Assembly: GCA_963783495.1 (NCBI GenBank)
Contig: CAWANT010000006.1
Location: 199,799 to 263,798 of the forward strand
DNA: 64,000 bases
Direction of reading: 5' to 3'
Source of the DNA: an uncultured Chloroflexia bacterium
GTDB taxonomy: Bacteria; Chloroflexota; Limnocylindria; QHBO01
Position numbers and translations under genes: made by a program. Positions 49,222-64,000 of this stretch are shown here, piece by piece. The notes below the pieces were generated by a model. The model had not been told where the DNA came from. It did not search any database and worked only from the letters and a program-made list of their open reading frames with translations. Numbering within the stretch: position 1 is the first letter of the stretch; each line of letters starts with the position of its first letter.

Positions 49222-50559
49222 GTGGTAGCCTTCCGGGCGGCCCAACCAACAGCATCCGGAGACGCCTTCTTGCCCGACATCCCGATCGAGCGACACCGGC
49301 TCGACAACGGCCTGCGCGTTGCCCTCTCCCACGACGACAGCGCACCGATCGTCGCCGTCAACCTGTGGTACGACGTCGGCAGCAAGCACGAGAAGCCCGG
49401 TCGCACCGGCTTCGCGCACCTCTTCGAGCACATGATGTTCCAGGGCTCGGAGCACGTTGCCAAGGGTGAGCACTTCGCCCATGTCCAGCAGGCCGGGGGC
49501 ACCCTCAACGCCTCCACCTGGCTCGACCGCACCAACTACTTCGAGACGCTGCCCAGCCACGAGCTGGAGCTGGGACTGTGGCTGGAGTCGGACCGGCTGG
49601 CCAGCCTGCTGCCGGCCATGACCCAGGAGAAGCTCGACAACCAGCGCGAGGTGGTCAAGAACGAGCGCCGCTACTCGGTCGACAACCAGCCGTACGGCAC
49701 CTGGGACGAGCGCATCCAGGCCCAGCTCTTCCCGGAGGGCCACACCTATCACCATTCGACCATCGGCTCCATGGAGGACCTGAACGCCGCCAGCCTCGAG
49801 GACGTCGGCGAGTTCTTCGCCACCTACTACGCGCCGAACAACGCGGTGCTGACCATGGCCGGCGACTTCGACCGGGACGCGCGCTGGCCATGGTCGAGCG
49901 GCACTTCGGGCCGATCCCCGCCAACGACGACCTGCCGCCGCCGCCGGACATGTCGATCCCGCCGCTGATCGGCAGGGGCCTGCGCGAGGAGGTGGCCGAT
50001 CGCGTGCCGCTGCCGCGCGTCTATGTCGCCTATCGGATGCCGATCTTCGGCAGCGACGCCTTCGATGACCTGTCGGTGGCCGGCGACGTCCTGGGCGTCG
50101 GCCGCGCGTCGCGGCTGTACAGCCGGCTGGTCCGCGAGCGGAAGCTGGCCCAGGACGTCAGCGTCTTCGCGTTCCCGATCGTGGGCGGGGCGTCGATGTT
50201 CACGATGTGGGCCACCGCCAAGCCGGGGGTCGGCGCCGATCAACTGGAGGCCGCGCTGCTGGACGAGGTCGACCAGCTCGCCGCCGAGGGGCCGACCGCC
50301 GCCGAGCTGGAGCGCGTCGGCAACCTGCACGCCGCCGCGGTGGAGTCCAGCCTGGAGCGGATCGCCGAGCGCGCCGACCGGCTGTCGATGTACGCCTGCC
50401 TGTTCGACGAGCCGGAGCGCATCAACACCGAGGTGAGCCGCTACCTGGCTGTCGATGCCGATCGCGTGCGGCGCGCCATGGCGCGAGACCCTGCGCCCGG
50501 ATAACCGGCTGGTGCTGACCTACCTGCCGGCCGAGGCGCCGGCCGAGGAGGCTGCCTGA
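49222..50559 (+). CDS. M16-family zinc peptidase, catalytic-type subunit (two frame breaks; start uncertain, 49222 or 49270)
   Basis: ORF 48247..49968 carries RLDNGLRVALSHD and GFAHLFEHMMFQGS (HxxEH). ORF 49578..50504 continues. After a late shift my reading ends LRPDNRLVLTYLPAEAPAEEAA*, overlapping the next ATG (TGATG). Confidence 0.85.
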
Positions 50560-51924
50560 TGCCGGCCACCGTCAACCCGCTGCGCCCGGTCGCCGGCGCC
50601 CCGCGCCCGTATCACTTTCCCGAGTTCCATCGGCAGCAGCTTGGCAACGGGATGACTGTCTGGACGGTCCCCGTGCCGAGCGCCGCCGTGGTCAACGTGC
50701 ACCTGCTGGTCGACGCCGGGGCGGCGGCGGAGGACGAGGCGCAAGGCTGGCGTGGCGGCCCTCACCGCCCAGCTGCTGGTCACCGGCACGCGGCGCCTGG
50801 ACGCCGGCGCCTTTGCCGAGGCCACCGAGCGGCTGGGCATCGAGGTCAGCAGCGAATCCAGCTGGGACTCGGCGCGGGCCGCCTTCCAATCGCTGCCCGA
50901 GCATGCCGACGACGGCATCGCGCTGCTGGCCGAGATGGTCCGCGAGCCGCGCCTGGACCCCGGCGAGTTCGATCGGCTCAAGGCGGAGCGCCTCGCCGAC
51001 ATCCTGCAGGCCCGCGCCGATCCCGGCCGCCTGGCCGACGAGATGTTCCTGCGCCACCTGTTCGACGCGTCGACGCCGTACCGCCGGCTCTCGGCGGGCA
51101 CCCCGGAGACGGTGGAGTGCCCTGACCCTGGACGACGTGCGCGCCTTCCAGGCCACGCACTGGGGGCCGAGCACCGCCCACCTGATCGTGGCCGGGCCGG
51201 TGGACCACGACACGGTGGTGCAGGCCGCCGAGCGCCATCTCGGCGACTGGACGCGGCGGCGGGCCCGGGCATCGAACCTTCACGCCGAAGGCAGCCGGCG
51301 CCCGGCGGTTGGTCATCGTCGACCGGCCCGGCTCGGTGCAGAGCGAGCTGCGCGTCGGCCACCTTGGCATCGACCGTCGCTCACCGCGCTACTTCCCGGC
51401 GCTGGTGCTGGGCGCGCATCCTGGGCGGCGTCTTCGGCTCGCGCCTGAACCTGCGCCTGCGCGAGGAGCTGGGCTACACGTACGGCGCCCGGGCCGGCTT
51501 CGACCCGCGCCGCGCGCCGGGTCCGTTCAGCGCCGCGCGCGGCCGTGCAGACCGAGGTCACCGCCGACGCGCTGCAAGGAGATGGTCGATCTGCTGACTC
51601 GCGTCCGCGACGCCGCACCCGACGAGACCGAGCTGCACGAGGTGCGCGACTACCTGGTCGGCGTCTTCCCGCTTCGGTTCGAGACCACCGGCGGCGTGGC
51701 CAGCGCGATGGAGCCGCTGGCCGTCTACGGCCTGGCCGATGACTACTGGCAGACCTATCGGCAGCACCTGGAGGCGGTGCAGGACAGACGACGTCCTGGC
51801 AGCGGCGCGCGACCTCGTGATGCCCGATCAGTTCCTGATGCTGGCGGTGGGTGACGCGTCGCAGATCCGCGCCGCCCTGGAAGCCGCCGACCTGGGGCCG
51901 ATGGAGGTCACCCAGGTCGACTGA
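50559..51924 (+). CDS. M16-family peptidase-like protein without HxxEH (at least 6 frame breaks)
   Basis: Collinear fragments 50559.., 50752.., 50813.., 51309.. and 51739..51924 (QLGNGMTVWTV; LTAQLLVTGTRRLD; LVIVDRPGSVQSELRVGH; GGVFGSRLNLRLREELGYTYGA; DYLVGVFPLRFETTGGVA). Confidence 0.8.
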
Positions 51925-51940
51925 CGCGACCGCACTGACT

Positions 51941-53071
51941 TCAGCCGATGGAGCCCAGCGCCTCGAGCAGCCGATCGTTCTCGGCCGGCGCCCGGACCGT
52001 GATCCGCAGCCAGTCGCGCAGCGGCCCGGCCGGGTAGCTGCGCACCGCCAGCCCCTGGCGCAACAGCGTTTCGGCGGTCGCCTGCGGCATCCGGCGGCCG
52101 CACCAGCAGGAAGTTGGCGAGCGACGGCAGCACCCGCCAGCCCACGGTCGTCGAAGGCAGCTGCCAGGCGGTCGCGCTGCGCCACGATCTCGGCCAGCCG
52201 CACGCGCGCCGCAGCCAGATCGGACAGGGCGGCGATGGCGGCCGCCTCGCTGGCTCCGCCGATGGCCAGGGGCAGGCGCGACGCCTCGAAGCGGGCGGCC
52301 AGCCCATCGGGCACGACCAGGTAGCCCACCCGCGCGCCGGCCAGCCCATAGGCCTTCGCCAGGGAGCGCAGGATGAGCAGGTTCGGGAATCGGTCCTGCA
52401 GGTGGAGGAGGCTGGCGCCCTCCGGCGGCAGGCCCAGCGAGACCTCGGCCATCTCCTGGTAGACCGCGTCGACCACCACCACGGCGGACAGGCCATCGGC
52501 CAGGGCGGCGATCTCGTCGGCGGCATAGCCGTCGCCGGTCGGGTTGTTCGGGCGAGCACAGCCAGACCAGCCTGGCGCCGGCTCGTTCGGCCGCGGCGCG
52601 GATGCGCTCGACCGGCTGCCGCTCGCCCGGGTCGCCGCGCGCCACCTCCACCACGCTGGCCCCCGCCAGGCGCGCCTCGACCGCGAACATCGCGAAGGTC
52701 GGGGTCGGGATGACGACCGAGTCGCCCGGGCCGACGGTCATGGTGGTGACCAGGCGGATCAGCTCGTCCGCGCCGGCGCCGGGGATGACCCGGACGGCCG
52801 GCGAGCCAGTGGCGGCCTCGACGGCGGCGCGCAGCCGGCGGTACGCCTGGTCGCCGTACTCGACCAGGCGGGCGGGGTCGAACGAGCGCAGCGCCTCGAC
52901 CACCGCCGGCAGGGGGCCCCCGCCCAGCGTGTTCATGTCGAAGCGGACCACCTGCTCCGGCGGCAGGCCGAGCTCCTCGGCCAGCTGCTCATCCGACGGT
53001 TCGGCCGGATACGGCTCAACAGCGTCGCGCAGCCGCAGCAGGTCAGTCGGCCGCGGCTCGGAGCCCGTCAC
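51941..53071 (-). CDS. histidinol-phosphate-aminotransferase-family (class II) PLP enzyme (frame-disrupted)
   Basis: ORF 51941..53911 gives VRFDMNTLGGGPLP...AVRVIPGAGADELIRL and the tail WLRITVRAPAEND. ORF 51313..52482 gives VVVDAVYQEMA...LILRSLAKAYGLAGARVGY (PLP Lys). ORF 51828..52559 gives ANFLLVRPPDA. GTG start at 53071. Confidence 0.75.
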   Translation of the reverse strand: MTGSEPRPTDLLRLRDAVEPYPAEPSDEQLAEELGLPPEQVVRFDMNTLGGGPLPAVVEALRSFDPARLVEYGDQAYRRLRAAVEAATGSPAVRVIPGAGADELIRLVTTMTVGPGDSVVIPTPTFAMFAVEARLAGASVVEVARGDPGERQPVERIRAAAERAGARLVWLCSPEQPDRRRLCRRRDRRPGRWPVRRGGGRRGLPGDGRGLAGPAAGGRQPPPPAGPIPEPAHPALPGEGLWAGRRAGGLPGRARWAGRPLRGVAPAPGHRRSQRGGRHRRPVRSGCGARAAGRDRGAARPPGSCLRRPWAGGCCRRSPTSCWCGRRMPQATAETLLRQGLAVRSYPAGPLRDWLRITVRAPAENDRLLEALGSIG

Positions 53072-54566
53072 GCGCCGACGGTCGCTGGCTCGGCCTCGCT
53101 CCCGTCGCCGGTCGCCGCGCCTGCGTGGCCACTCCAACACGAACGATGCACGCGGCCGCCGCTCCTCCAGGCGCACGGTTCCGCCCTGCGCCTGCATCGC
53201 CGCGTTGACCAGGAAGAGGCCCAGCCCCAGCCCGCGACCGGAGCCGACTCGCTCGCGGAAGATCACCTCGGCCACGTCGTCGGGGATGCCCGGGCCGGCG
53301 TCGCGAACGCGGAGCAGCGGCGCCTCGCGGCCATCGATCTCGACCTCCACCGGCGCGTTCGGCTGCGAGTAGCGGTCGGCGTTGGTCAGCAGGTTGGTGA
53401 TCGCCTGCTCGGTCAGGCCGCCGATCGCCATGCACCACCGAGTCGCCATGAGCGACGACGCGCACCTCGCGCTCGCTGCCCTGCGCCCGCAGGCGCTCAA
53501 TGCCGGCGTCCGACCGCCTCGCGCAGGTCGAACGGGCTCCTGGCCGGCGTCCAGCCGGCCCGCCTCTGCCCGCGAGAAGAGCTCCAGCCGCTCGAGGATG
53601 CCGATGGCCGCATCGACCGATTCCAGCGCCCGCGCCCCATGGTCGACGCCACGACCGGCTTCACGGCCGCGGTTGGCGAGCTCGATCCGTGCCTTGGCCA
53701 CCGCCAGCGGGTTGCGCAGCTCGTGCGCCACGAAGCTGGCGAAGCGAGACAGGCGCCGCCGCTCGTCGACTTCCTTGCCCACGTCGCGCAGCAGCAGGAC
53801 GCTGCCGCCGTCCGGCAGGGGCGTGCCCTCCACGTCGACCAGCAGGTCGCGTCCCGACATCGGCAGGCGCACCAGCACCCGTTGCCGCGAAGGCCCCGTT
53901 CGTGCCCGCACCTGCGGCCACTCCTCGCGCGGCAGCGGACTCCCGCCTTCGTCGCGCGGCTCGACGACGCGCGCCCAATCCTCCAGCGGCCGATCGTAGA
54001 AGCTCCGCCCGAACGTGCGCAGGGCGGCGTTGTTGGCGAAGGTGCCCAGCCCATCGGCGTCCGTAGACGATCAGGGGCTCGGGGATGGCCTGTGCCACCT
54101 CCGCCAGCCGGGCCCGCTCGCGATCGACCTGCTCCAAGGCATCGCGCACCTCGAAGCCGGGCCGCGTCGGCCGCCAGCCTGCGCCTGGTTGGCCTGCTCC
54201 TCCGCGGCGCGGCTGGCCCGCCAGGCAGCTCGATCCGCGCGCTGTTGCCACTCCGAGCGCAGCCCCAGCACGATGACCACCGGCGAGCCGAAGGCGAAGA
54301 CCATGAGGCGCAGGACGTCCGGCTCGGCCATGGCCGCTCCGGTCGGCGGCAGCGAGGCCAGCGAGCAGGATCACGCCCGCGACGACGTAGGCGATGAGCG
54401 CGGGAATGGCTCCCAGGCTCAGGCCGATGAGCGTGATGACCAGCACCACCAGCACGACGTACGGCGCCGATTGCGCCGTGGTCGAGGCCAGCCACAGCGA
54501 CAGTCCCGCCGCCGCGCCTCCCAGCACGGCGCCCAGGACCGCGTCGCGAATGTCTCGCCGCGTCAC
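53068..54566 (-). CDS. membrane sensor histidine kinase with PAS-like domain (frame-disrupted)
   Basis: TM region comes from ORFs 53661..54566 and 54071..54331. The H-box FVAHELRNPLAV, LTNADRYS, VRDAGPGIP and GLGLGLFLV come from ORF 51941..53911. Confidence 0.8.
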
Positions 54567-55813
54567 CTCAGCGCCGAAGCCTGGCGCACGCCCGCAGCGA
54601 CAACGTCAACCGGCAATGGATCGTCGGCCGGGTCCGGGATCCGGCGGCTGCGGGTGGTTGCTGCGGCCCGTTCGCGTCCCGCACTGCGGCACGCTCGCGC
54701 GCACGAACCAGCCGGCGACGCGCGGCCGCGATGCGCCGCACGGGATCGCCGCCGATCCGGCGGCGATCCAGCGCCTCGGGATGATCGCCGCGCGCCAGCG
54801 CCGCCAGCAACGAGGAGGCGCGATCGAGCTGGCCCGCCTCGGTCAGCAGCTGCACGATGCTGAACCAGCGCGCGGGCTCGGTTACCCGCTGGGACGCGAC
54901 CCGCTCGACGATCTCCGCGGCACGCCCGACGTGGCCGGCCCGGCGCAGCGCCACGATCGTGGCGCGCACGTCCGGGATGCCCGGCTCCATGTCGAGCGCC
55001 TCCAGGTAGTTGAGCAGCAGCTCGGCCGCCTCGGCCCGATCCTCGACCGTGCCGCGTCGCACGCGCTGGTCGCGAAACTCGCCGAGCAGCGCCCGCAGCT
55101 CGCGGTCCACCCATCGGCGCTGGCTGCTGCTGGGCGGGATACCGCTCGGCCACCTGGCGCAGGAAGCCGATGCCGCGCAGCAGCATGCCGGTGCTGACGT
55201 AGGCGGCTCGCAGGTCCGCCTGCACCAGCGTGTCGAAGGCATCGTCCAGGTCGATCAGGCGCTCCATCGTGCCGATCCAGTCCTCGATGCTGGCCCCGAT
55301 CCCGGTAGTAGCCGGCCGCGTAACGCAGCCAGTAGCGCTCGCCGTGCGTGCGCCAATCCTCGCCGGTGATGTGGTTGGCCACGATCCAGGCGTTCTGCAC
55401 GCTGGGCCCCGCCATGAACACGTCAACGGGGACGCGGAACCCCGCCACGTTGCGCCACTGCGGCTGGTGCCAGCGGCTCGGCGGCTGGGCCGCGCGGGGG
55501 ACGCGGCGCCGTCGGGCGGGAGCCGGCGATCTCGTCCGACCTCCAGCGGCCAGTCCAGGGTCGCCGCCGTGCCGCGCTCGAGGTCGTGGTCGTAATGCAG
55601 GCGGCGCAGCGGATCGCGCAGCTCGCGCCATGCCCGGTTGAGGACGGCGGTGCGGCGGGTGGCCAGCTGGCTGGCCGTGGCGCGATCGGGATGGTGGCGC
55701 AGCACGGCATCGCGGAACGCGGCGCGCAGCTCCGCGGACGTGGCGGAGGGTTCGGCGCCAAGCACCTCGTAGTAGTCGCGCTCCTCGGTGCGTGCCTCGC
55801 GATCGACGGCCAT
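54563..55813 (-). CDS. J-domain (DnaJ-like) protein with TPR-like helical C-terminal region (frame-disrupted)
   Basis: ORF 54563..55813 opens DYYEVLGAEPSATSAELRAAFRDAVLRHHPDR (HPD). The middle comes from ORF 54882..55910 (NAWIVANHITGEDWRTHGERYWLRYAAGYY). The tail comes from ORF 54568..55242 (ELLLNYLEALDMEPGIPDVRATIVALRRAGHVGRAAEI). Confidence 0.65.
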   Translation of the reverse strand: MAVDREARTEERDYYEVLGAEPSATSAELRAAFRDAVLRHHPDRATASQLATRRTAVLNRAWRELRDPLRRLHYDHDLERGTAATLDWPLEVGRDRRLPPDGAASPARPSRRAAGTSRSGATWRGSASPLTCSWRGPACRTPGSWPTTSPARIGARTASATGCVTRPATTGIGASIEDWIGTMERLIDLDDAFDTLVQADLRAAYVSTGMLLRGIGFLRQVAERYPAQQQPAPMGGPRAAGAARRVSRPARATRHGRGSGRGGRAAAQLPGGARHGAGHPGRARHDRGAAPGRPRRACRGDRRAGRVPAGNRARALVQHRAAADRGGPARSRLLVAGGAGARRSSRGAGSPPDRRRSRAAHRGRASPAGSCARACRSAGRERAAATTRSRRIPDPADDPLPVDVVAAGVRQASALR

Positions 55814-55879
55814 CCGGCGAGGATACGACGCCCGTCACCTCGCCGTCCGAGCGGGCGCGACGGTAGACTGCGGCGCGAC

Positions 55880-56877
55880 ATGCCTCCCACCGAGCGGTCC
55901 GGCGGGCCACGCGCCGGGCACCTGCTGATCATCGGCGGCGCCGAGGACAAGCTGCGACAGCGCCAGATCCTGTCGCGCTTCGCCTCCCTGGCCGGCGGGG
56001 CCGATGCGCGCGTGGCGGTCATCTCGACGGCGTCCTCGCTGGGCGACGAGGCCACCGAGCTGTACCAGTCACTCTTCCGCTCGCTGGGCATCCCCGAGGT
56101 GCGCGGCCTGCGGCCCGCTGACCCGCGAGGACGCCAACCAGCCGGCGGCGATCGAGGCGGTCCGCGACGCGACCGGCATCTTCATGACCGGCGGCAACCA
56201 GCTGCGCCTGTCGAGCGTGATCGGCGGGACCGGGCTCGGACGGGCGATCATCGATCGGCACAAGCACGGCGTGATCGTGGCCGGCACCAGCGCCGGCGCC
56301 TCGGCCATCAGCACCCACATGGTCGCCTTCGGCACCAGCGGCACGACGCCCGAAGCAGCGCATGACCCAGATGAGCGCCGGCCTCGGCCTGCTGCCGGGC
56401 GTGATCATCGACCAGCACTTCGAGCAGCGGAACCGGATCGGCCGGCTGCTGGCGCTGGTGGCGCAGTCCCCCGCCCTGCTGGGCATGGGCATCGACGAGG
56501 ACACCGCCGCGCTGGTCACCCCGGCCGGGATGATGGAGGTGCTGGGCAAGGGATCGGTCACCATCCTGGATCCGGCCAAGCTTCAGACCGACGCCTACGA
56601 GGTGAAGCGTCACAAGCCGATCATGGTCAGCGGCGTGATCCTGCACTCGCTCCCCTCGGGCTATCGGTTCGACCTCCGCAAGCGGCGCCTGCGCGCGCCG
56701 CTGCGGCCGGTGTCGGCCACCGATCGCGAGCTGGCCCGCATCGCCAGCGCCTCGAACGTCACCCGCCGCCTGATCCGCCGCATCGCGGCGGAGGGCGCCG
56801 ATGACACCGCCCCGGAGCGGGCACGGCGCCGTCGGGCCCTCAGCGCCCGCCGCCTGGACGAGGAGGCCAGCGAATGA
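55880..56877 (+). CDS. cphB: cyanophycinase (S51 peptidase; two frame breaks)
   Basis: ORF 55586..56365 from MPPTERSGGPRAGHLLIIGGAEDK, ORF 56004..56804 (IFMTGGNQLRL...VIVAGTSAGASA) and ORF 56362..56877 (GVIIDQHFEQRNRIGRLL...GIDEDTA). Confidence 0.88.
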
Positions 56878-59713
56878 GCACCGGCGCGCGCCAAGCGGCC
56901 GATCGCCTCGCGGTCGAAGGCGAAGGTGGAGCGCACGCGCGGCCAGCCGCAAGAAGCTCAAGCCGGCGGGCGAGCTGAAGATCGTCGAGACGCGCGTCTT
57001 CCGCGGGCCGAACTACTGGAGCTACGACCCGGCCATCAAGCTGGTCGTCGACCTGGGCGTGCTGGAGCAGTTCCCGTCGAACACCATCCCCGGCTTCGTG
57101 GAAGGGTTGCTGGACATGCGTGCCCGGCGGTCGGCAGCCACTCGTGCGGCACCGGCCGCGCCGGGCGGCTTCGAGGGGCGACTGCAGCGAGGGCACCTGG
57201 CTGGGCCACGTGGCCGAGCACGTGGCGCTGCAGCTCCAGCGCGAGGCCGGCACCGAGGTCGGCCGCGGCAAGACGCGCAGCACCGGCGAGCCCGGGCGCT
57301 ACCACGTCGTCTACTCGTTCGGCGAGGAGAGCGTGGGACTGGCGGCCGGGCGCCTGGCCGTCCGGCTGGTCAACCACCTGGTCACGCCAGAGCCCGACTT
57401 CGACTTCCGGGTCGAATTCGAGAAGCTGGTCCTGCTGGCCGAGCGGGCCGCCTTCGGCCCGTCGACCCAGGCCATCCTGGACGAGGCCGCCCTGCGCGAC
57501 ATCCCGTCCATCCGCCTGAACGAGCAGTCGCTGGTCCAGCTGGGCCACGGCGTCCACCAGCAGCGCATCCGGGCAACCATGACCAGCCAGACCAGCTCGC
57601 TGGGCGTCGACATCGCGTCCGACAAGAAGCTGACCAACAAGCTGCTGGCGGCGACCGGCGTGCCGGTGCCGCGCTCCGAGGTGGTGCGCAACGAACAGGA
57701 GGCGTCCGCCGCGGCCGCCACCATCGGCTACCCGGTCGCGATCAAGCCGCTGGACGGCAACCACGGCCGGGGCGTGATGCTCAACCTGGCCGATGACGCC
57801 GCCGTGCGGGCCGGCTACGCCGCCGCCCGCGCCGAGTCGCGGCAGTGGCGGGGTGGTGGTCGAGTCGTACCTCACCGGCAACGACTACCGCTGCCTGGTG
57901 ATCGGCGGGGTGCTGCGGGCGGTGGCCCAGCGCGTGCCGGCGCACGTCGTGGGCGACGGCGAGCACAGCCTGGCCGAGCTGGTCGAGATCACCAACGCCG
58001 ATCCGCGGCGCGGGATCGGTCACGAGAAGGTGCTGACCCGCATCAAGGTCGACGACGAGTCAATCACCTATGCCCGCGAGCAGGGCTTCGAGATGGGCGA
58101 CGTCCCGCCACGCGGCGTGCGGGTCTTCCTGAAGCGCACCGGCAACATGAGCACCGGCGGCATCAGCATCGACCGGACCGATGAGGCGCACCCCGACAAC
58201 GTCGAGATCGCCGAGCTGGCGGCGCGGGTGGTGGGCCTGGACATCGCCGGCATCGACTTCATCTGCCCCGACATCAGCGTGCCGGTGCGCGAGACCGGCG
58301 GCGGCATCGTGGAGGTCAACGCCGCGCCGGGCTTCCGGATGCACACCCATCCGACCGAGGGCGAGGCGCAGTACGTGGCCAAGCCGGTGATCGATGCGCT
58401 CTTCCCGCCCGGCAGCCCGTCGCGCATCCCGATCGTGGCGGTGACCGGCAGCAACGGCAAGACGACCACCGCCCGGATGATCTCGCACGTCATGAAGGGG
58501 ATGGGTCGCAAGGTCGGCATGACCTCGACCGATGGCATCTTCGTCGACGGCCGGCCGGTGCGGAAGGGCGACTCATCGGGCCCGCGATCGGCCTCCACCG
58601 TGCTCCAGAACCCGACCGTCGACTTCGCGGTGTTCGAGGTGGCGCGCGGCGGCATCCTGCGCGAGGGCCTGGGCTACCAGCGCAACGACGTGGCGGTGGT
58701 CCTGAACGTGACCGGCGACCACCTGGGGCTGGCCGGCATCAACTCGATCCGCCAGCTGGCCAACGTCAAGCAGGTCGTGGTCGAGGCCGTGCCGCGCGAC
58801 GGGACGGCGGTCCTCAACGCCGACGACCCGCTGGTCGCCGCCATGGGCCGCCACTGCTCCGGATCGGTCATCTACTTCAGCATGGATCCGGACAACGAGC
58901 TGATCAAGCGCCAGGCCTCGCGCGGGCGGCGGGCAGTGACGCTCGAGCCGGGCCGCAACGGCGAGATGATCGTGCTGCGGCAGGGGCGCAAGTCGATGCC
59001 ACTGGTCTGGACCCACCTGCTGCCGGCGACCTTCGAGGGGCGGGCGCGGATGAACGTCCAGAACGCGCTGGCCGCCACCGGCGCAGCCTGGGCGGCCGGC
59101 GCCCACCTGCACGACATCCGGCAGGGCCTGCGCACCTTCACCACCAGCTACTTCATGGCGCCGGGCCGATTGAACATGTTCGAGCTGGACGGCTACCGGG
59201 TGATCGTCGACTACGCCCACAACCCGCCGGCCGTGCGCTCCCTGGGCGAGTTCGTCGACCAGCTGAGCCGAGCCGTCGACCACGGGTCGCCGGCCGCTGG
59301 TCACCGGCCGCCGCATCGGCGTCATGGCCACCGCCGGCGACCGGCGCGATGAGGACATCGTGGAGCTGGGCCGGACCGCCGCGCGCTACTTCGACACGCT
59401 GATCCTGCGCGAGGACGCGAACAATCGCGGCCGGCCGCCGCGGCGAGACGGCCGCCCTGATCGAGAAGGGCGTGCGCGCCGAGATGGCCGCCGGCGCGCC
59501 GCGCCGAGACGGTGGAGACCGTGCTGGACGAGCTGGAGGCGACCCGGCGCGCGCTGGACCTGGGGAGCGACGGCGACCTGATCGTGGTCTGCGTCGACCA
59601 CGCCAACGACGTGTGGAAAGAGCTGCAGCGCCGCCAGCACGGCGCCTCCAGCGGCGCCATGTCGGCAGTCACCCGCCTGGGCGACCGAGGACGGGATCGA
59701 GGTCGAGGCCTAG
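56874..59713 (+). CDS. cphA: cyanophycin synthetase (N + ATP-grasp + Mur-ligase domains; frame-disrupted; true start may be the CTG at 56975)
   Basis: Fragments:
- 56801..57796: LKIVETRVFRGPNYWSY
- 57120..58184: WLGHVAEHVALQLQ; KKLTNKLLAATGVPVP...GYPVAIKPLDGNHGRGV
- 57793..59352: IVEVNAAPGFRMH; IVAVTGSNGKTTTARM; DYAHNP
- 59324.., 59472.. and 59512..: tail
My reading ends GIEVEA* at 59711-59713. Confidence 0.9.
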
Positions 59714-61344
59714 CCCGCCGACAGCAGCTCGCGCAGGCGGTTCGATGGGCACCGGCTGATAGCCCGCGGATTCCAGCCAATCGGCGATCTCGCTGCGCTC
59801 GACGTGGGTCATGACCGCCACCACGTCGCCTTTCCTGGCCCGTCGCTCCAGTGCCTGCAGCGCGGTCAGCTCGCTCGGGATGCGCCTCGACCTTGCCGGC
59901 GAAGCCGCCCTCCTTGCACACCGGCGCGCAGGATCCGGTTCATCGCCCCCAGGTCGCGGCCGCGCAGGTAGTGGCGCTTCTCGCAGATGACGACGTCGTC
60001 GGCGCCCGCGCCGGCCAGGCGGCCCAGGTTGCGCAGGATCTCATCGGTCCGGTCGCCGGCCGTGCCCAGCGCCAGCCGGACCTTGCCCCGGCGGCGGCCA
60101 CCGCCGGGTCGCGTGACAAGCTGGCGTGACACGTCCAGCAGCCCCTGCAGGCCGGCCTCGTTGTGGGCGAAGTCGATCAGCACCAGCGTGCCGCGTCCGC
60201 TCGTAGAGGTTGAGGCGTCCGGGGTTGGCGCCGGTGTCGAGCGTGAAGGAGCGCAGGCCCGCCGCGATCCGCCTGGCCGAAATGCCGAGCGCGTCAGCGG
60301 CGGCGGCGGCGGCCAGCGCATTGGCCACGTTGTAGGTGGAGAGCCCGCCGAAGGTGACCGGCAGCTCGGCGACCGGTGGCGATCTGCCGTGGCGACCGAC
60401 CGGCGCGCAGCAGGGTGACGACGCCGTCCCGCACGACGGCGGCCCGTCCGCCGCGCTCCAGCGCCTCGCGCACGCCGGGGCTGTCCGGCTCCAGGCTGAA
60501 CGCGTACCAGCCGGCGCGCGTCTCGCGCCGCATCGCCCACACCCGCGGGTCGTCGGCGTTCAGCACCGCCCATCCGCCTCGCCGCGTGATGCGCACGATG
60601 GTGGCCTTCACCTCGGCCAGCTCGTCGACGGTGTCGATCCCCTGCAGGCCAAGGTGGTCGGCCGAGACGTTGGTCACGACGGCCACGTCGTTGGCCGCAT
60701 AGCCGATGCCGCGCAGCAGGATCCCGCCGCGGGCCGTCTCGAGCACGGCGAGCTGCAGACCGGGCTCCGCCAGGACGCGACCCGCGCCGCCGAAGCCGGT
60801 CCAGTCGCCCGGCTCCACCAGCTCGTCGCGGACGTAGATGCCGTCCGAGTTGGTCATGCCGACCCGCCGGCCGGCCTCGCGCGCGATGTGCGCGATCAGG
60901 CGCGTGGTCGTGCTCTTGCCGTTGGTGCCGGTGACGGCCACCATCGGGCACGTCGCGGCGTCGGCAGGTGCGGGCGCGGACCCAGGCGCGATCGGCCCGC
61001 AGCGCGCGAAGCTCCCGGCGCTCGGTGGTGATGCCCAGGGCGACGCGCGAGGCGGCAGTGCCCACCGCCTGGGCGATGGCGCGACGATGCCAGGGGAAGG
61101 CGATCGCCGCCCGCCGGCGGTCGGCCGAGTCCGCGCATGGTGAGGCGCGGCGGGCTCAGGTCCAGGCCGGCGTACAGGTGCCGAACGACTTGCGCCGGCG
61201 ACGCGTGGCGACCGCGGCGGCGACGCCCGGCTCATCGGCGCCGAACTCGAGCTTGACGGCCGGCCGGGTGAAGAAGCGGTTCGGGCCGTCCAGCACGCGG
61301 AGCTCGAGCAGCTCGACCCCGTCGGCGCTGGCGGCCTGCGGCAT
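59710..61344 (-). CDS. CphA-like protein with cyanophycin-synthetase N-domain + Mur-ligase domain only, no ATP-grasp (frame-disrupted)
   Basis: Start MPQAASADGVELLELRVLDGPNRFFTRPAVKLEF lies inside ORF 61156..61839. The P-loop MVAVTGTNGKSTTTRL is only about 135 codons later (ORF 60294..61235). Then NVSADHLGL, STYNVANALAAAA (60041..60328), LIDFAHNEAGL and LGTAGDRTDE (59866..61065). My tail reading ends LRELLSAG*, sharing a CTAG with the cphA stop. Confidence 0.75.
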
Positions 61345-61367
61345 GGCCGGCAGTATACTCACGCGCC

Positions 61368-62542
61368 ATGCCGCCCCCGCCCAGCCTGCACGAGGCCGTC
61401 GCAGGCACGCCTGCCGCGGTACCTGGCGGAGCTGGAGGCGCTCGTCAACATCGATTGCGGCTCCTACACCGCGGCCGGCGTCAACCGCGTCGCCGACCGG
61501 GTGGCCGCCTCGCTGGCCGAGCTTGGCGCCGAGGTCGAGCGCATCCCCCACGCCGCCAGCGCCCGGCGAGCTGCAGCTCGGCGACCTCGTGATCGGCCAT
61601 CTCGCCGGCGACGGTCCGCGGCGCCTGCTGATCGGGCACATGGACACGGTCTTCGACGAGGGCACCTGCGCGGCGCGGCCGTACCACGTCAGCGGCGAGC
61701 CGCGCCCTGGGGCCCGGGCACCAGCGACATGAAGGGCGGGCTGCTGGCCGGCCTGCACGCCCTGGCCGCCCTGCAGGAAACCGGCGGGCGCCCGGCCGGT
61801 GACCTTCGTGGCCAACCCGGACGAGGAGATCGGCTCCATCTTCAGCGGCGCAGCACATCCGTCGCCTGGCGCCGGAGCACGACGTCAGCCTGGTGCTCGA
61901 GAGCGCCCGCGCCAGCGGCGCCATCGTCAGCGCGCGCAAGGGCATCGCCGACATCGAGCTCACGCTTCACCGGCCGCGCCGCGCACGCGGGCGTGGAGCC
62001 GGAGAAGGGCCGCTCCGCGATCCTGGCGGCCGCCCGGCAGGTGGTGGCCCTGCACGCGCTCAACGGTCGCTGGCCCGACGTGACCCTGAACGCGGGCGTG
62101 ATCGCCGGCGGCACGCGCCCGAACGTGGTGCCGGCCGAGTGCCGGCTGCAGGTGGACCTGCGCGCAGCCACGGCCGAGACCTTCGACGCCGCCCGCGCCG
62201 AGGTGGAGCGCCTCGTGATGGACGGCCCGGTCGAGGGCGTGACCTGCCAGGTCCGCGAGCTGGCAAGCCATCGGCCGATGGAGAAGACGCCCGCCACGGC
62301 CCGGCTGGCCGCGCTGGCCATCGACATCGCCGGCGAGCTGGGCTTCGACGCTGACCGACGCCGCAACCGGCGGCGCCAGCGACGCCAACACCACCGCGGG
62401 ACTCGGGGTGCCCACCCTGGACGGGCTCGGCCCCATCGGCGGTGACGACCATTCGGCCGATGAGTGGCTGGACCTGGCCAGCGTGGTGCCTCGCACCGCC
62501 TTGCTGGCCACGCTCATCGCCCGTGTCGGGGAGGCACTGTAG
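61368..62542 (+). CDS. M20-family metallopeptidase (carboxypeptidase-G2-like; at least 5 frame breaks)
   Basis: Fragments carry LLIGHMDTVF (60968..61732), GPGTSDMKGGLL and RFTGRAAHAGVEPEKGRSAI...NAGVIAGGTRPNVVP (61501..62445), and VANPDEEIGS (61799..). My reading of the tail gives GASDANTTAGLGVPTLDGLGPIGGDDHSADEWL...ARVGEAL*. Confidence 0.78.
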
Positions 62543-62554
62543 AATCGGCCCTCC

Positions 62555-62995
62555 GTGACTGACGACTTCCGCCACCGCACGCGCGTCGACGTGCGGTTCC
62601 GTGACATCGACGCCTTCGGGCACGTGAACAACGCCGTCGTCTCCAGCTACATCGAGCTCGCCCGGATTCGATACCTGGTCGACGTCTTGCAGGTGGAGCC
62701 GATCGGTGTGATGCCGCTGATCCTGGCGAACATCTCGATCGACTACCGCTCGCCGATCTTCTTCCAGGACACGGTGGAGATAGGCTCGCGGGTCGACTGG
62801 TTGGGCACCAGCAGCATCGGCATGTCGCACGAGCTGAATGCCGCGGCGGACGGCCGCGAGCTGGCCCGATCCTCATCGGTCCTGGTCACCTATGACTACG
62901 AGCGGGGCCGGCCCATGCGCGTGCCCGACGACTGGCGCGCCGCCCTGGCGGCGTACGAGGGGCACGCCCTGGAGCGACCGGTGGCCACCGCATGA
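62555..62995 (+). CDS. 4HBT/YbgC-type acyl-CoA thioesterase
   Basis: Intact 146-aa ORF with VDVRFRDIDAFGHVNNAVVSSYIE. GTG start. The stop overlaps the lpdA ATG (ATGA). Confidence 0.8.
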   Translation: MTDDFRHRTRVDVRFRDIDAFGHVNNAVVSSYIELARIRYLVDVLQVEPIGVMPLILANISIDYRSPIFFQDTVEIGSRVDWLGTSSIGMSHELNAAADGRELARSSSVLVTYDYERGRPMRVPDDWRAALAAYEGHALERPVATA

Positions 62996-64000
62996 GCGAG
63001 ACGATGCAGTTCGACCTGCTGATCCTGGGCGGTGGCATGAGCTACGTGGGCGCCATCCGCGCTGCGCAGCTGGGCCTCAAGGTGGGCCTCATCGAGCGCG
63101 ACAAGCTGGGCGGCACGTGCCTGAACCGCGGCTGCATTCCATCGAAGGCGCTGCTCGAGACGGCCGACCTCTTGCATCGGGTTCACGAGCAGGGCGGCGA
63201 GTTCGGCCTGGCCGGGCACGAGGGCATCAGCCTTGACTACCCTGCCCTCGGCGCGCGCCGCGACGCGGTCGTGGACAAGCACGTCAAGGGCGTCGAGTTC
63301 CTGCTCAAGAAGAATGCTGTGACCGTCATCCGCGGCCACGGCACCCTGACCGGCCCGACCAGCGTCCGCGTCTCCGGCGGCGAGTCGGGTGACGTGGACG
63401 CCAGCGGCACGGATCTCATCCTGGCCACCGGGTCGGCGCCCAAGTCGCTGCCCGGCCTGGACGTCGACGGCCATCGCATCATCACCTCCGACGAGGCGCT
63501 GCAGCGCGCCGAGGTCCCACGGCGCGTGACGATCGTGGGCGCCGGGGCGGTGGGCGTCGAGTGGGCCAGCATGTACCGCGACTTCGGGGCGGAGGTGCAC
63601 CTGGTCGAGTTCCTGGACCGGCTGGTGCCCTTGGAGGACGCCGACGTCAGCAAGGAGCTGGGCCGGGTCTTCCGCAAGCGCGACATCACCGCCCACCTGT
63701 CCTCGACCATCGACACCGAGAGCATCCAGCCGACCGACGACGGGCTGCGCTTCACCGTTGCCGCCCGCGAGGGCGACAAGCGGACCGAGGTGGAGTCCGA
63801 CCTGATCCTGGTGGCGGTCGGGCGACGGCCGCTGACCGAGGACATCGGCCTGGAGGCCATCCCGGGCGTTGAGCTGGACCGCGGCTACGTCAAGGTCGAC
63901 GGCTGGATGCGGACCGGCGCCGAGCACATGTACGCCATTGGCGATATCGTGCCGGGCTTTGCGCTCGCCCACGTGGCGGCGCACGAGTCGGTGGTGGCGG
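62992..64000 (+). CDS. lpdA: dihydrolipoyl dehydrogenase (3' end off-window)
   Basis: Not in the ORF track because no stop lies in the window. My translation from the ATG at 62992 is [55 protein letters not shown]...[17 protein letters not shown]...[27 protein letters not shown] is the redox disulfide. Confidence 0.9.
   Translation, partial: [336 protein letters not shown]

Follow-up and report, generated by a model that had tools for sequence, protein, structure and literature searches.

Cyanophycin is a nitrogen-storage polymer, and its synthesis is taught as the work of one enzyme with three domains. The stretch of DNA analysed here, 64,000 nucleotides (nt) of contig CAWANT010000006.1 from an uncultured Chloroflexia bacterium (hereafter the window), carries a cyanophycin locus in which a gene for a cyanophycinase (cphB) and a gene for a complete cyanophycin synthetase (cphA, encoding CphA1 with its N domain, ATP-grasp or G domain, and Mur-ligase or M domain) are accompanied by a further CphA-like gene, designated N+M, and by a gene for an M20 metallopeptidase. 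The locus raises the question of what a synthetase relative that consists of the N and M domains would do beside the full enzyme. Sequence comparison identifies N+M as a genuine, conserved stand-alone relative of CphA, in which a reduced N domain is fused directly to the M domain with no G domain between them, and we propose that it may act on cyanophycin as a side-chain ligase. To our knowledge, CphA2 is the sole reduced form of CphA that has been described, and we found no published description of a CphA relative without a G domain.

Domain architecture of the N+M protein

The N+M gene was traced in the window by a three-frame reading of the minus strand, across at least five frame changes. 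Used as a query, the stitched reading of 554 amino acids (aa) matched thousands of relatives, the best of which comprise 533–546 aa, are 84–90% identical, and are named 'Mur ligase family protein [Candidatus Limnocylindria bacterium]' at NCBI and 'cyanophycin synthetase' at JGI. Domain searches were performed on five intact relatives (533–560 aa, 67–90% identical; the closest has 538 aa and 90% identity). All five match Mur_ligase_M (PF08245; 70–81 bits) and Mur_ligase_C (PF02875; 32–44 bits) above the Pfam gathering scores, and a fragment from the window itself scores 68 bits. No ATP-grasp family in Pfam is matched by any of the five, even at E ≤ 10, and the region ahead of the P-loop gave no BLAST match to G domains. 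In the intact relatives the P-loop (VAVTGTNGKSTTTRL in the window) begins at residue 137, preceded by about 135 residues. Because Mur domains are all that Pfam finds and the P-loop is already reached at this point, the protein contains no hidden G domain, and synthesis of the polymer backbone would therefore be beyond it. An earlier note on this DNA, made from the raw reading frames, had described the gene in these terms; its distance of about 135 codons between start and P-loop stands, and its length of about 545 codons is replaced by the 538 codons of intact relatives.

The M part is of the CphA type, as that note had also proposed. The cyanophycin synthetase model TIGR02068 matches N+M residues 129–509 at model positions 478–849 with 390 bits (367–390 bits across the relatives, under the whole-protein cut-off of 850), and residues 485–862 of SuCphA1 in PDB 7LG5 align with the M part at an E-value of 4e-75. 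The motifs of the M part read GTNGKST (the P-loop), ETARGG, DHLG, K, NPGRLN, DFAHN, and GDR. In an alignment of 126 M domains with the SuCphA1 sequence (Synechocystis (Su) numbering is used throughout), the same residue recurs in N+M of both clades and in CphA1, at a conservation of 85% or higher, in 45 columns, among them N497, K499, E558, R561, D585/H586, K602, R731, H748/N749, D776/R777, R805, and E835; the T500 equivalent is likewise conserved, and the T522 position is Ser or Thr in N+M. In CphA1, mutation of D585/H586, to which D227/H228 correspond in N+M, abolishes the activity of the M domain (PMC9262961), and K499, T500, T522, E558, R731, and H748 have roles in ATP and Mg binding (PMC9427784). 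Just two columns are strictly group-specific, with S542 replaced by Gly and F793 by Ala in N+M. A further candidate, a systematic change of the polymer contact E607 to Arg in N+M, was rejected, as CphA1 itself is not conserved at this position. Judged by these residues, the M domain of N+M is complete, looks fully active, and is closely CphA1-like.

The N-terminus of N+M was not recognised by family models: in the five intact relatives it does not match Pfam PF18921, even at E ≤ 10, nor any NCBIfam model, and profile–profile and fold comparisons were therefore needed to establish homology. Alignment of 40 N+M N-regions with 56 CphA1 N domains by hhalign gave a probability of 95.6% and an E-value of 1.2e-8 over 122 columns (97% and 8.3e-11 for the longer N+M forms only), against E-values of 0.08–0.7 for reversed or column-shuffled templates; removal of the GPN motif left the register unchanged (E 0.004). 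A single-sequence AlphaFold2 model of the whole protein was not used (predicted local distance difference test, pLDDT, 34). In its place, residues 1–134 of the 538-aa protein P0003 were modelled from an alignment of 46 sequences that contained no CphA1 sequences, yielding a beta-beta-alpha-beta-beta-alpha-alpha fold with a pLDDT of 91 and a predicted template modelling (TM) score, pTM, of 0.82. In a Foldseek search of the PDB with this model, the 12 top matches were all CphA1 or CphA2 chains (7LG5, 8FXI, 7LGN, 7LGJ, 7LGQ, 7WAC, and 7WAE among them; probability 1.00, E-values of 3e-4 to 4e-3, TM scores of 0.52–0.61), followed by LuxS (probability 0.63, TM score 0.32).

On this profile and model evidence, the N-terminus of N+M is a reduced CphA N domain. 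The resemblance claimed in the earlier note is thus borne out at the level of profile and fold, for a domain that fails PF18921, that has about 123–125 residues compared with about 160–170 in CphA1, and that lacks the Cx19HxxEH motif, the segment being deleted in the 123-residue form and unconserved in longer forms. In CphA1, where it is present in 83% of sequences, this motif marks a metallopeptidase-like site that creates primers (PMC9262961). An invariant segment of N+M, R-x-L-x-G-P-N-x4-P, matches the hydrophobic loop of the CphA1 N domain that packs on the M domain; in CphA1 the N domain and the M core flank the substrate of the M site (PMC9427784).

The two kinds of N domain were also compared for net charge at 23 loci that carry both genes (L020–L093). 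The mean is +5.1 for the N domain of N+M and -5.2 for that of the adjoining CphA1, the former being the more positive in 20 of the 23 pairs; the pattern is reversed in Thermomicrobia and in the gammaproteobacterial locus L093 (-9 to -13 for N+M), and the M domains of the two proteins show no such difference. A basic N domain was considered as a marker for binding of polyanionic poly-Asp and was rejected as a property of the family in view of this reversal.

Taken together, domain content and genomic context make it extremely improbable that N+M is just a common Mur-family ligase, of the cell wall or otherwise, whose position next to cphA is incidental. Such a protein would fit the name given at NCBI and the generic Mur domains found by Pfam, yet N+M scores 390 bits with the CphA model and 108 with the best of the MurE models, and none of the MurC–F models comes near its cut-off (257–476). 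Moreover, the N domain has the CphA fold rather than a UDP-MurNAc-binding fold, MurE sequences form a separate outgroup in the M-domain tree with 100% support, and the synteny with cphA is kept across phyla.

Linkage to cphA, distribution, and phylogeny

The linkage of N+M to cphA seen in the window recurs elsewhere, in several phyla. A scan of GTDB species representatives recovered 41 N+M loci among the best 80 matches, and cphA is present at 35–36 of the 37 loci that have at least 1.5 kb of downstream sequence. N+M is convergent with cphA at 32 loci, half of them with a gap of 36 nt or less or with an overlap; two further loci are co-directional with cphB–cphA, and at one, from a gammaproteobacterial metagenome-assembled genome (MAG), N+M comes after cphB–cphA. 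By record title, the carriers are Chloroflexota (Limnocylindria, 'Chloroflexia', and Anaerolineae), Thermomicrobia, Actinomycetota, and one member of Ectothiorhodospiraceae; single short contigs binned to four further phyla may be mis-binned. A search for a cultured carrier returned MAGs and metagenome contigs only.

Co-occurrence of N+M with CphA1 is near-obligate at the level of genomes. Among 201 Chloroflexota genomes, N+M is encoded in 24, all 24 of which also encode CphA1, and CphA1 alone occurs in only one or two; within the window's family, the pair is present in 12 of 12 genomes. Among 301 Actinomycetota genomes, CphA1 is encoded in 33 and N+M in at least 31 of these, usually within a few kb of CphA1 and convergent with it. 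In a library of clusters at 50% identity, at least 57 of the best 150 matches qualify as genuine N+M proteins (the N motif is present, and nothing is left of a G domain). A large and old N–M family beside nearly every sampled CphA1 in two major soil phyla would imply a step that is missing from current models of cyanophycin metabolism.

A tree of M domains (126 rows, rooted on five MurE sequences) was labelled by protein content; 19 proteins of 500–700 aa with an early P-loop were classed as N-terminally cut CphA1 with G-domain remnants, not as N+M. All CphA1 M domains form one clade, with 99 in the Shimodaira–Hasegawa-like approximate likelihood ratio test (SH-aLRT), and N+M falls outside this clade in two groups. 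Group A (47 rows) holds the window's lineage and all cphA-linked loci, and group B (29 rows) holds L014, which is not linked to cphA, together with the gammaproteobacterial L093. [quoted passage not shown] N+M bears on this origin, as it could represent the N–M ligase that was later fused to an ATP-grasp domain or the product of a later loss of the G domain; because the backbone of the tree is unresolved, an ancestral N+M and an early loss of G are indistinguishable.

Five CphA-like proteins without a G domain (P0230, P0204, P0270, P0240, and P0221) are nested inside the CphA1 clade, and another, P0259 (not placed in the tree), has a complete N domain with Cx19HxxEH followed by a short remnant of the G domain. 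Recent losses of this domain have thus probably occurred as well, on the evidence of metagenomic gene calls that could be artefacts. In group B, N+M at L014:5828-8694 (and similarly at L015 and L019) overlaps by 4 nt a downstream gene for a protein of 417 aa, which has C-terminal hydrophobic segments, belongs to no Pfam family, and gives a weak archaemetzincin-like match (27.9 bits, E 2e-6). By sequence, this pair looks like an operon of a ligase and a putative metalloprotease. The genomes of L014, L015, and L019 carry CphA1 elsewhere.

Predicted function of N+M and of the M20 peptidase

N+M retains exactly those parts of CphA1 that hold the Asp-terminated chain for ligation of arginine, which is the basis for viewing it as a stand-alone side-chain (arginine) ligase that acts on cyanophycin in trans. 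From sequence and analogy with CphA1, we regard the chances of this reading as evenly balanced. N+M would bind a cyanophycin chain, or a short segment of one, by a terminal Asp with a free beta-carboxylate, and would hold it, as CphA1 does, in the groove that separates the M core from the N domain. The beta-carboxylate would be activated by ATP to an acyl-phosphate, to which L-arginine, or a closely related basic amino acid, would then be ligated. The enzyme would in this way perform the side-chain step of cyanophycin synthesis beside a full CphA1 encoded tail-to-tail, and could serve in completing, repairing, or re-charging chains, or in changing their composition.

Several observations weigh against a side-chain ligase of this kind. 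What N+M acts on (the end of a cyanophycin chain), which amino acid it adds, and for what physiological purpose are all inferred, with 'arginine' and 'cyanophycin end' drawn from overall conservation and from context. The adjoining CphA1 has its own M domain, which seems to be intact, so it is not obvious why this step should need another enzyme. The N domain of N+M is shorter and has lost the part with which the CphA1 peptidase site binds polymer, and its net charge varies, from about +5 at most loci to between -9 and -13 in Thermomicrobia and L093, so that a single common mode of polymer binding is not assured. The upstream neighbours of N+M differ by lineage (M20, a major facilitator superfamily (MFS) transporter, or an Rce1-like protease), and the group B form (e.g., at L014) does not adjoin cphA, being found in an operon with an uncharacterised membrane protein. 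On the other side, the near-obligate co-occurrence with CphA1 argues for a role that is not redundant, with another acceptor position, another amine, or repair and re-charging as candidates.

Three further accounts of N+M were weighed. The same chemistry could serve another job, with a different amine (lysine, ornithine, citrulline, or another) or an internal un-arginylated Asp as the acceptor, so that cyanophycin in Chloroflexota and Actinomycetota would be a two-enzyme product of altered composition or solubility. We consider this unlikely. That N+M nearly always accompanies a CphA1 whose M domain looks intact argues for a non-redundant activity, its M domains form lineages apart from CphA1, the two group-specific columns (S542 to Gly and F793 to Ala) differ consistently, and its N domain is opposite in net charge to that of the paired CphA1 in 20 of 23 loci; however, the charge pattern is not universal in the family, the specific columns number merely two, and the lid residues D776/R777, R805, and E835, common to CphA1, suggest the same or a very similar amino acid. 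It is also doubtful, and somewhat more so, that N+M serves to synthesise primers or dipeptides, or in salvage, making beta-Asp-Arg or primers of the (beta-Asp-Arg)-Asp type from free Asp or CphB products and arginine, to feed CphA1 or to recycle products of degradation. The minimal primer of CphA1 is indeed (beta-Asp-Arg)-Asp (PMC9262961), an enzyme without a backbone-forming domain would be limited to the isopeptide bond, and the hydrolase encoded by the paired M20 gene could act on the same small molecules. Primers should nevertheless not be limiting where the adjoining CphA1 has the Cx19HxxEH primer-generating site, and the retained N domain and N–M groove suit a polymer better than a free amino acid.

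Finally, the main role of N+M could be to assist CphA1 in structure or regulation, for instance by joining it in hetero-oligomers or by capping chains and so setting their length, with catalysis secondary. Such a role would accord with the tight co-occurrence and tail-to-tail linkage with cphA1 across phyla, and with the contribution of N and M domains to oligomer interfaces in known CphA structures (PMC10273328). It is nonetheless distinctly improbable, since the M domain preserves every ATP, Mg, and catalytic residue throughout a family that is deep and diverse, which would be unexpected of a purely structural protein.

The M20 peptidase was put forward in the earlier note, by position, as a candidate hydrolase of beta-Asp-Arg dipeptides. 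N-acyl amino acids, a class that includes beta-Asp-Arg, are hydrolysed by M20 enzymes of the carboxypeptidase G2 (CPG2) kind. The nearest structure to the M20 protein is CPG2 itself (1CG2; E 1e-42), with a weaker match to the poly(aspartic acid) hydrolase PahZ2 (7LJH; E 1e-14), and the glutamate carboxypeptidase model NF004788 scores 292.7 bits (cut-off 349). PahZ2 cleaves both alpha- and beta-amide bonds in oligo-aspartate (PMC13017698). The known beta-Asp-Arg hydrolases are IaaA, IadA, and CphZ (PMC9974463); none of the corresponding models (PF01112, TIGR01975, and PF04952, respectively) is matched above cut-off in 31 genomes of the window's family, 14 of which are at least 90% complete. Of 33 informative loci, 20 have M20 divergently beside N+M, almost exclusively in Chloroflexota, and the pairing is kept in deeper Chloroflexota that have no 2-oxoacid dehydrogenase genes downstream. 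The Thermomicrobia loci and most Actinomycetota loci have no adjoining M20.

The candidacy of M20 thus receives moderate support from its position and from the family's lack of matches to IaaA, IadA, and CphZ, tempered by its lineage-restricted occurrence and by orthologues outside cph loci. The simplest reading of M20, plausible though not secure, is a hydrolase of the beta-aspartyl-arginine bond, with the beta-Asp-Arg dipeptide that CphB releases as its most likely substrate. If so, it may constitute a fourth kind of beta-Asp-Arg hydrolase, in lineages without IaaA, IadA, and CphZ. The idea that M20 is specific to cyanophycin loci was rejected. Two genomes of the same class carry an orthologue with 55% identity, at G187:C18:2215-3360 and G088:C76:1320-2459 (L105 and L106), and N+M and CphA1 were not found in either genome (each 95% complete), nor within 9 kb of the M20 gene.

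A bolder scheme would join both enzymes in a two-ligase system of Chloroflexota and Actinomycetota. CphA1 would build the chains, the N–M enzyme would re-attach arginine or add a second kind of side chain on Asp residues with a free side chain, and in Chloroflexota M20 would remove the added group by hydrolysing the same beta-aspartyl-arginine bond, so that a poly-Asp scaffold could be discharged and recharged without cleavage of its backbone; as a corollary, the N–M form would be the pre-fusion ancestor that later gained the ATP-grasp domain. We offer this as speculation and think it improbable in this form. N+M is directly testable: the proteins are small and look soluble, (beta-Asp-Arg)n-Asp has already been synthesised, and homology indicates which mutations would inactivate the enzyme. 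For the production of tailored cyanophycin-like polymers, a side-chain ligase that works on its own could also be useful.

The locus in the window and its known counterparts

Reading of the locus is complicated by broken frames. The G+C content of the region is 70–75%, and none of the four genes of the cyanophycin locus is an open frame. When 14.3 kb of the window was aligned to an intact relative (L001; 90.6–92% nt identity), the window showed 54 one-base insertions but just 3 one-base deletions. All genes between 49.7 and 62.5 kb (49674–62542) are broken, namely those for M16 peptidases, an aminotransferase, a histidine kinase (HisKA), and a DnaJ-domain protein, as well as the cyanophycin locus (insertions per gene are given in Table 1), and the last 1.4 kb of the window (thioesterase and lpd) is free of such insertions and deletions. 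Because single-base insertions strike every gene over this range, the alignment identifies the frame breaks as insertion-biased sequence or assembly error, not as decay of the cyanophycin locus.

The several frame-breaking insertions in each of the four genes might alternatively be read as a sign that the whole locus, N+M included, consists of pseudogenes in this genome. This is highly improbable, given that the same type of error runs through every gene over 13 kb, genes of housekeeping type included, and is almost always a +1 insertion; the sequence is otherwise 92% identical to the intact relative, amino acids are conserved within each frame segment (90% identity for the stitched N+M protein), and marker completeness of the assembly is as low as 58% despite just seven contigs. 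Readings of assembly GCA_963783495.1 that are based on open reading frames (ORFs) accordingly require frameshift-aware handling.

Table 1. Features of the cyanophycin locus, in window positions, with single-base insertions counted against the intact relative L001
Feature	Positions	Strand	Basis	Single-base insertions
cphB, cyanophycinase (S51)	55880..56877	+	Pfam Peptidase_S51 on fragment	2
cphA1 (N, ATP-grasp G, and Mur-ligase M domains)	56874..59713	+	Pfam Cyanophycin_syn, ATP-grasp_5, and Mur_ligase_M on fragments	11
CTAG common to the convergent stops of cphA1 and N+M	59710..59713	.	Sequence reading	
N+M gene, M part: CphA-type Mur ligase, core and C-terminal lid	59710..60960 (boundary at 60960 approximate)	-	TIGR02068, 7LG5	11 (whole N+M gene)
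N+M gene, N part: reduced CphA N domain	60961..61344	-	hhalign, AlphaFold2, Foldseek	
Spacer of 23 nt from the N+M start codon to the divergent M20 start codon	61345..61367	.	Sequence reading	
M20 metallopeptidase, carboxypeptidase-G2-like	61368..62542	+	Pfam Peptidase_M20, M20_dimer	8

The gene order, strands, and coordinates of cphB, cphA, N+M, and M20 were found as the earlier note had described them, apart from the junction of cphB and cphA. Those two genes do overlap, by 4 nt at 56874–56877 rather than at 56801–56804 as the raw ORFs suggest. The cphB protein starts at 55880 and reads MPPTERSGG; its intact orthologue (L001:14439-15434) matches TIGR02069 with 259 bits (cut-off 126.6). The intact cphA1 orthologue, of 942 aa, matches TIGR02068 with 1143.6 bits, above the cut-off that N+M does not reach, and the N domain of the window's cphA1 contains the Cx19HxxEH motif as HSCGTGRAGGFEGRLREGTWLGHVAEH (C-x19-HVAEH). 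N+M starts with an ATG at 61344 on the minus strand (MPQAASADGVELLELRVLDGPN; MPQAASADGVELLELRVLDGPNRFFTRPAVKLEF) and ends in a TAG at 59712–59710, which meets the TAG of cphA1 at 59711–59713 on the plus strand, so that the two stops share the CTAG; in L001 the equivalent 4-nt stop overlap is TTAG. M20 lies directly beside N+M and diverges from it, with starts at 61368 and 61344, and the spacing between them is identical in relatives L001 and L003. The order cphB–cphA, convergent N+M, and divergent M20 is repeated exactly in close relatives from independent assemblies and is therefore no product of chance.

On the far side of cphB lie a divergent DnaJ-domain gene (54581-55813, minus strand) and then a histidine kinase gene (53068-54566), both of which are kept beside cphB in Limnocylindria (L001, L003, L016, L017, and L020). 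After M20, on the same strand, positions 62555-64000 (and L001:2795-8798) encode a 4HBT-type thioesterase, lpd, E1 alpha/beta, a DinB-family protein, and E2; M20 may head a 2-oxoacid dehydrogenase operon in the window's family. In other lineages, the gene upstream of N+M on the same strand encodes an MFS_3 transporter at two Actinomycetota loci (L030:5912-7189 and L033:1488-2735) and an Rce1-like (CPBP) membrane protease at two Thermomicrobia loci (L045:6974-7942 and L057:5612-6538).

With respect to known systems, the M20 protein shares the catalytic and dimerisation domains of M20 enzymes with CPG2 (1CG2) and PahZ2 (7LJH); it is unrelated to IaaA, IadA, and CphZ, and stays below the NCBIfam cut-off for glutamate carboxypeptidases. 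N+M belongs to the same superfamily as MurE, MurF, and other Mur ligases, with the same ATP-dependent acyl-phosphate chemistry, and MurE is the nearest family outside CphA. It differs from these ligases in having no UDP-MurNAc-binding N-terminal domain, in scoring far under the cut-offs of their families, and in its separation from the MurE clade. Proteins regarded as mis-tagged MurE/MurF, from Francisella noatunensis and a Solemya velum symbiont, group with CphA (bioRxiv 10.1101/2022.11.30.518518); these may be relatives of the same kind, without a G domain.

The closest counterpart of N+M is CphA1 (TIGR02068; 7LG5, 7LGJ, 7LGQ, 7WAC-7WAE, and 7LGN), with which it has in common a full-length M domain (core and lid) bearing all catalytic residues, the N-domain fold, the loop of N–M contact, and genomic coupling to cphB. 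CphA1 differs in possessing a G domain of about 330 residues, which is wholly missing in N+M, and a longer N domain with the Cx19HxxEH peptidase site; the M domains of N+M group apart from the CphA1 clade, and N+M scores less than half of the TIGR02068 cut-off. CphA2 (7TA5, 8FXH, and 8FXI) is likewise a reduced CphA that keeps the N domain, which counts among the top structural hits for the N+M model. CphA2 represents the opposite reduction, as the earlier note had stated: it combines the N domain with a G domain that is active and an M domain that is truncated and inactive, and polymerises beta-Asp-Arg dipeptides (PMC10273328), whereas N+M combines a complete M domain with no G domain. Beside these two known architectures, the N–M form is a widespread, uncharacterised member of the cyanophycin synthetase family.

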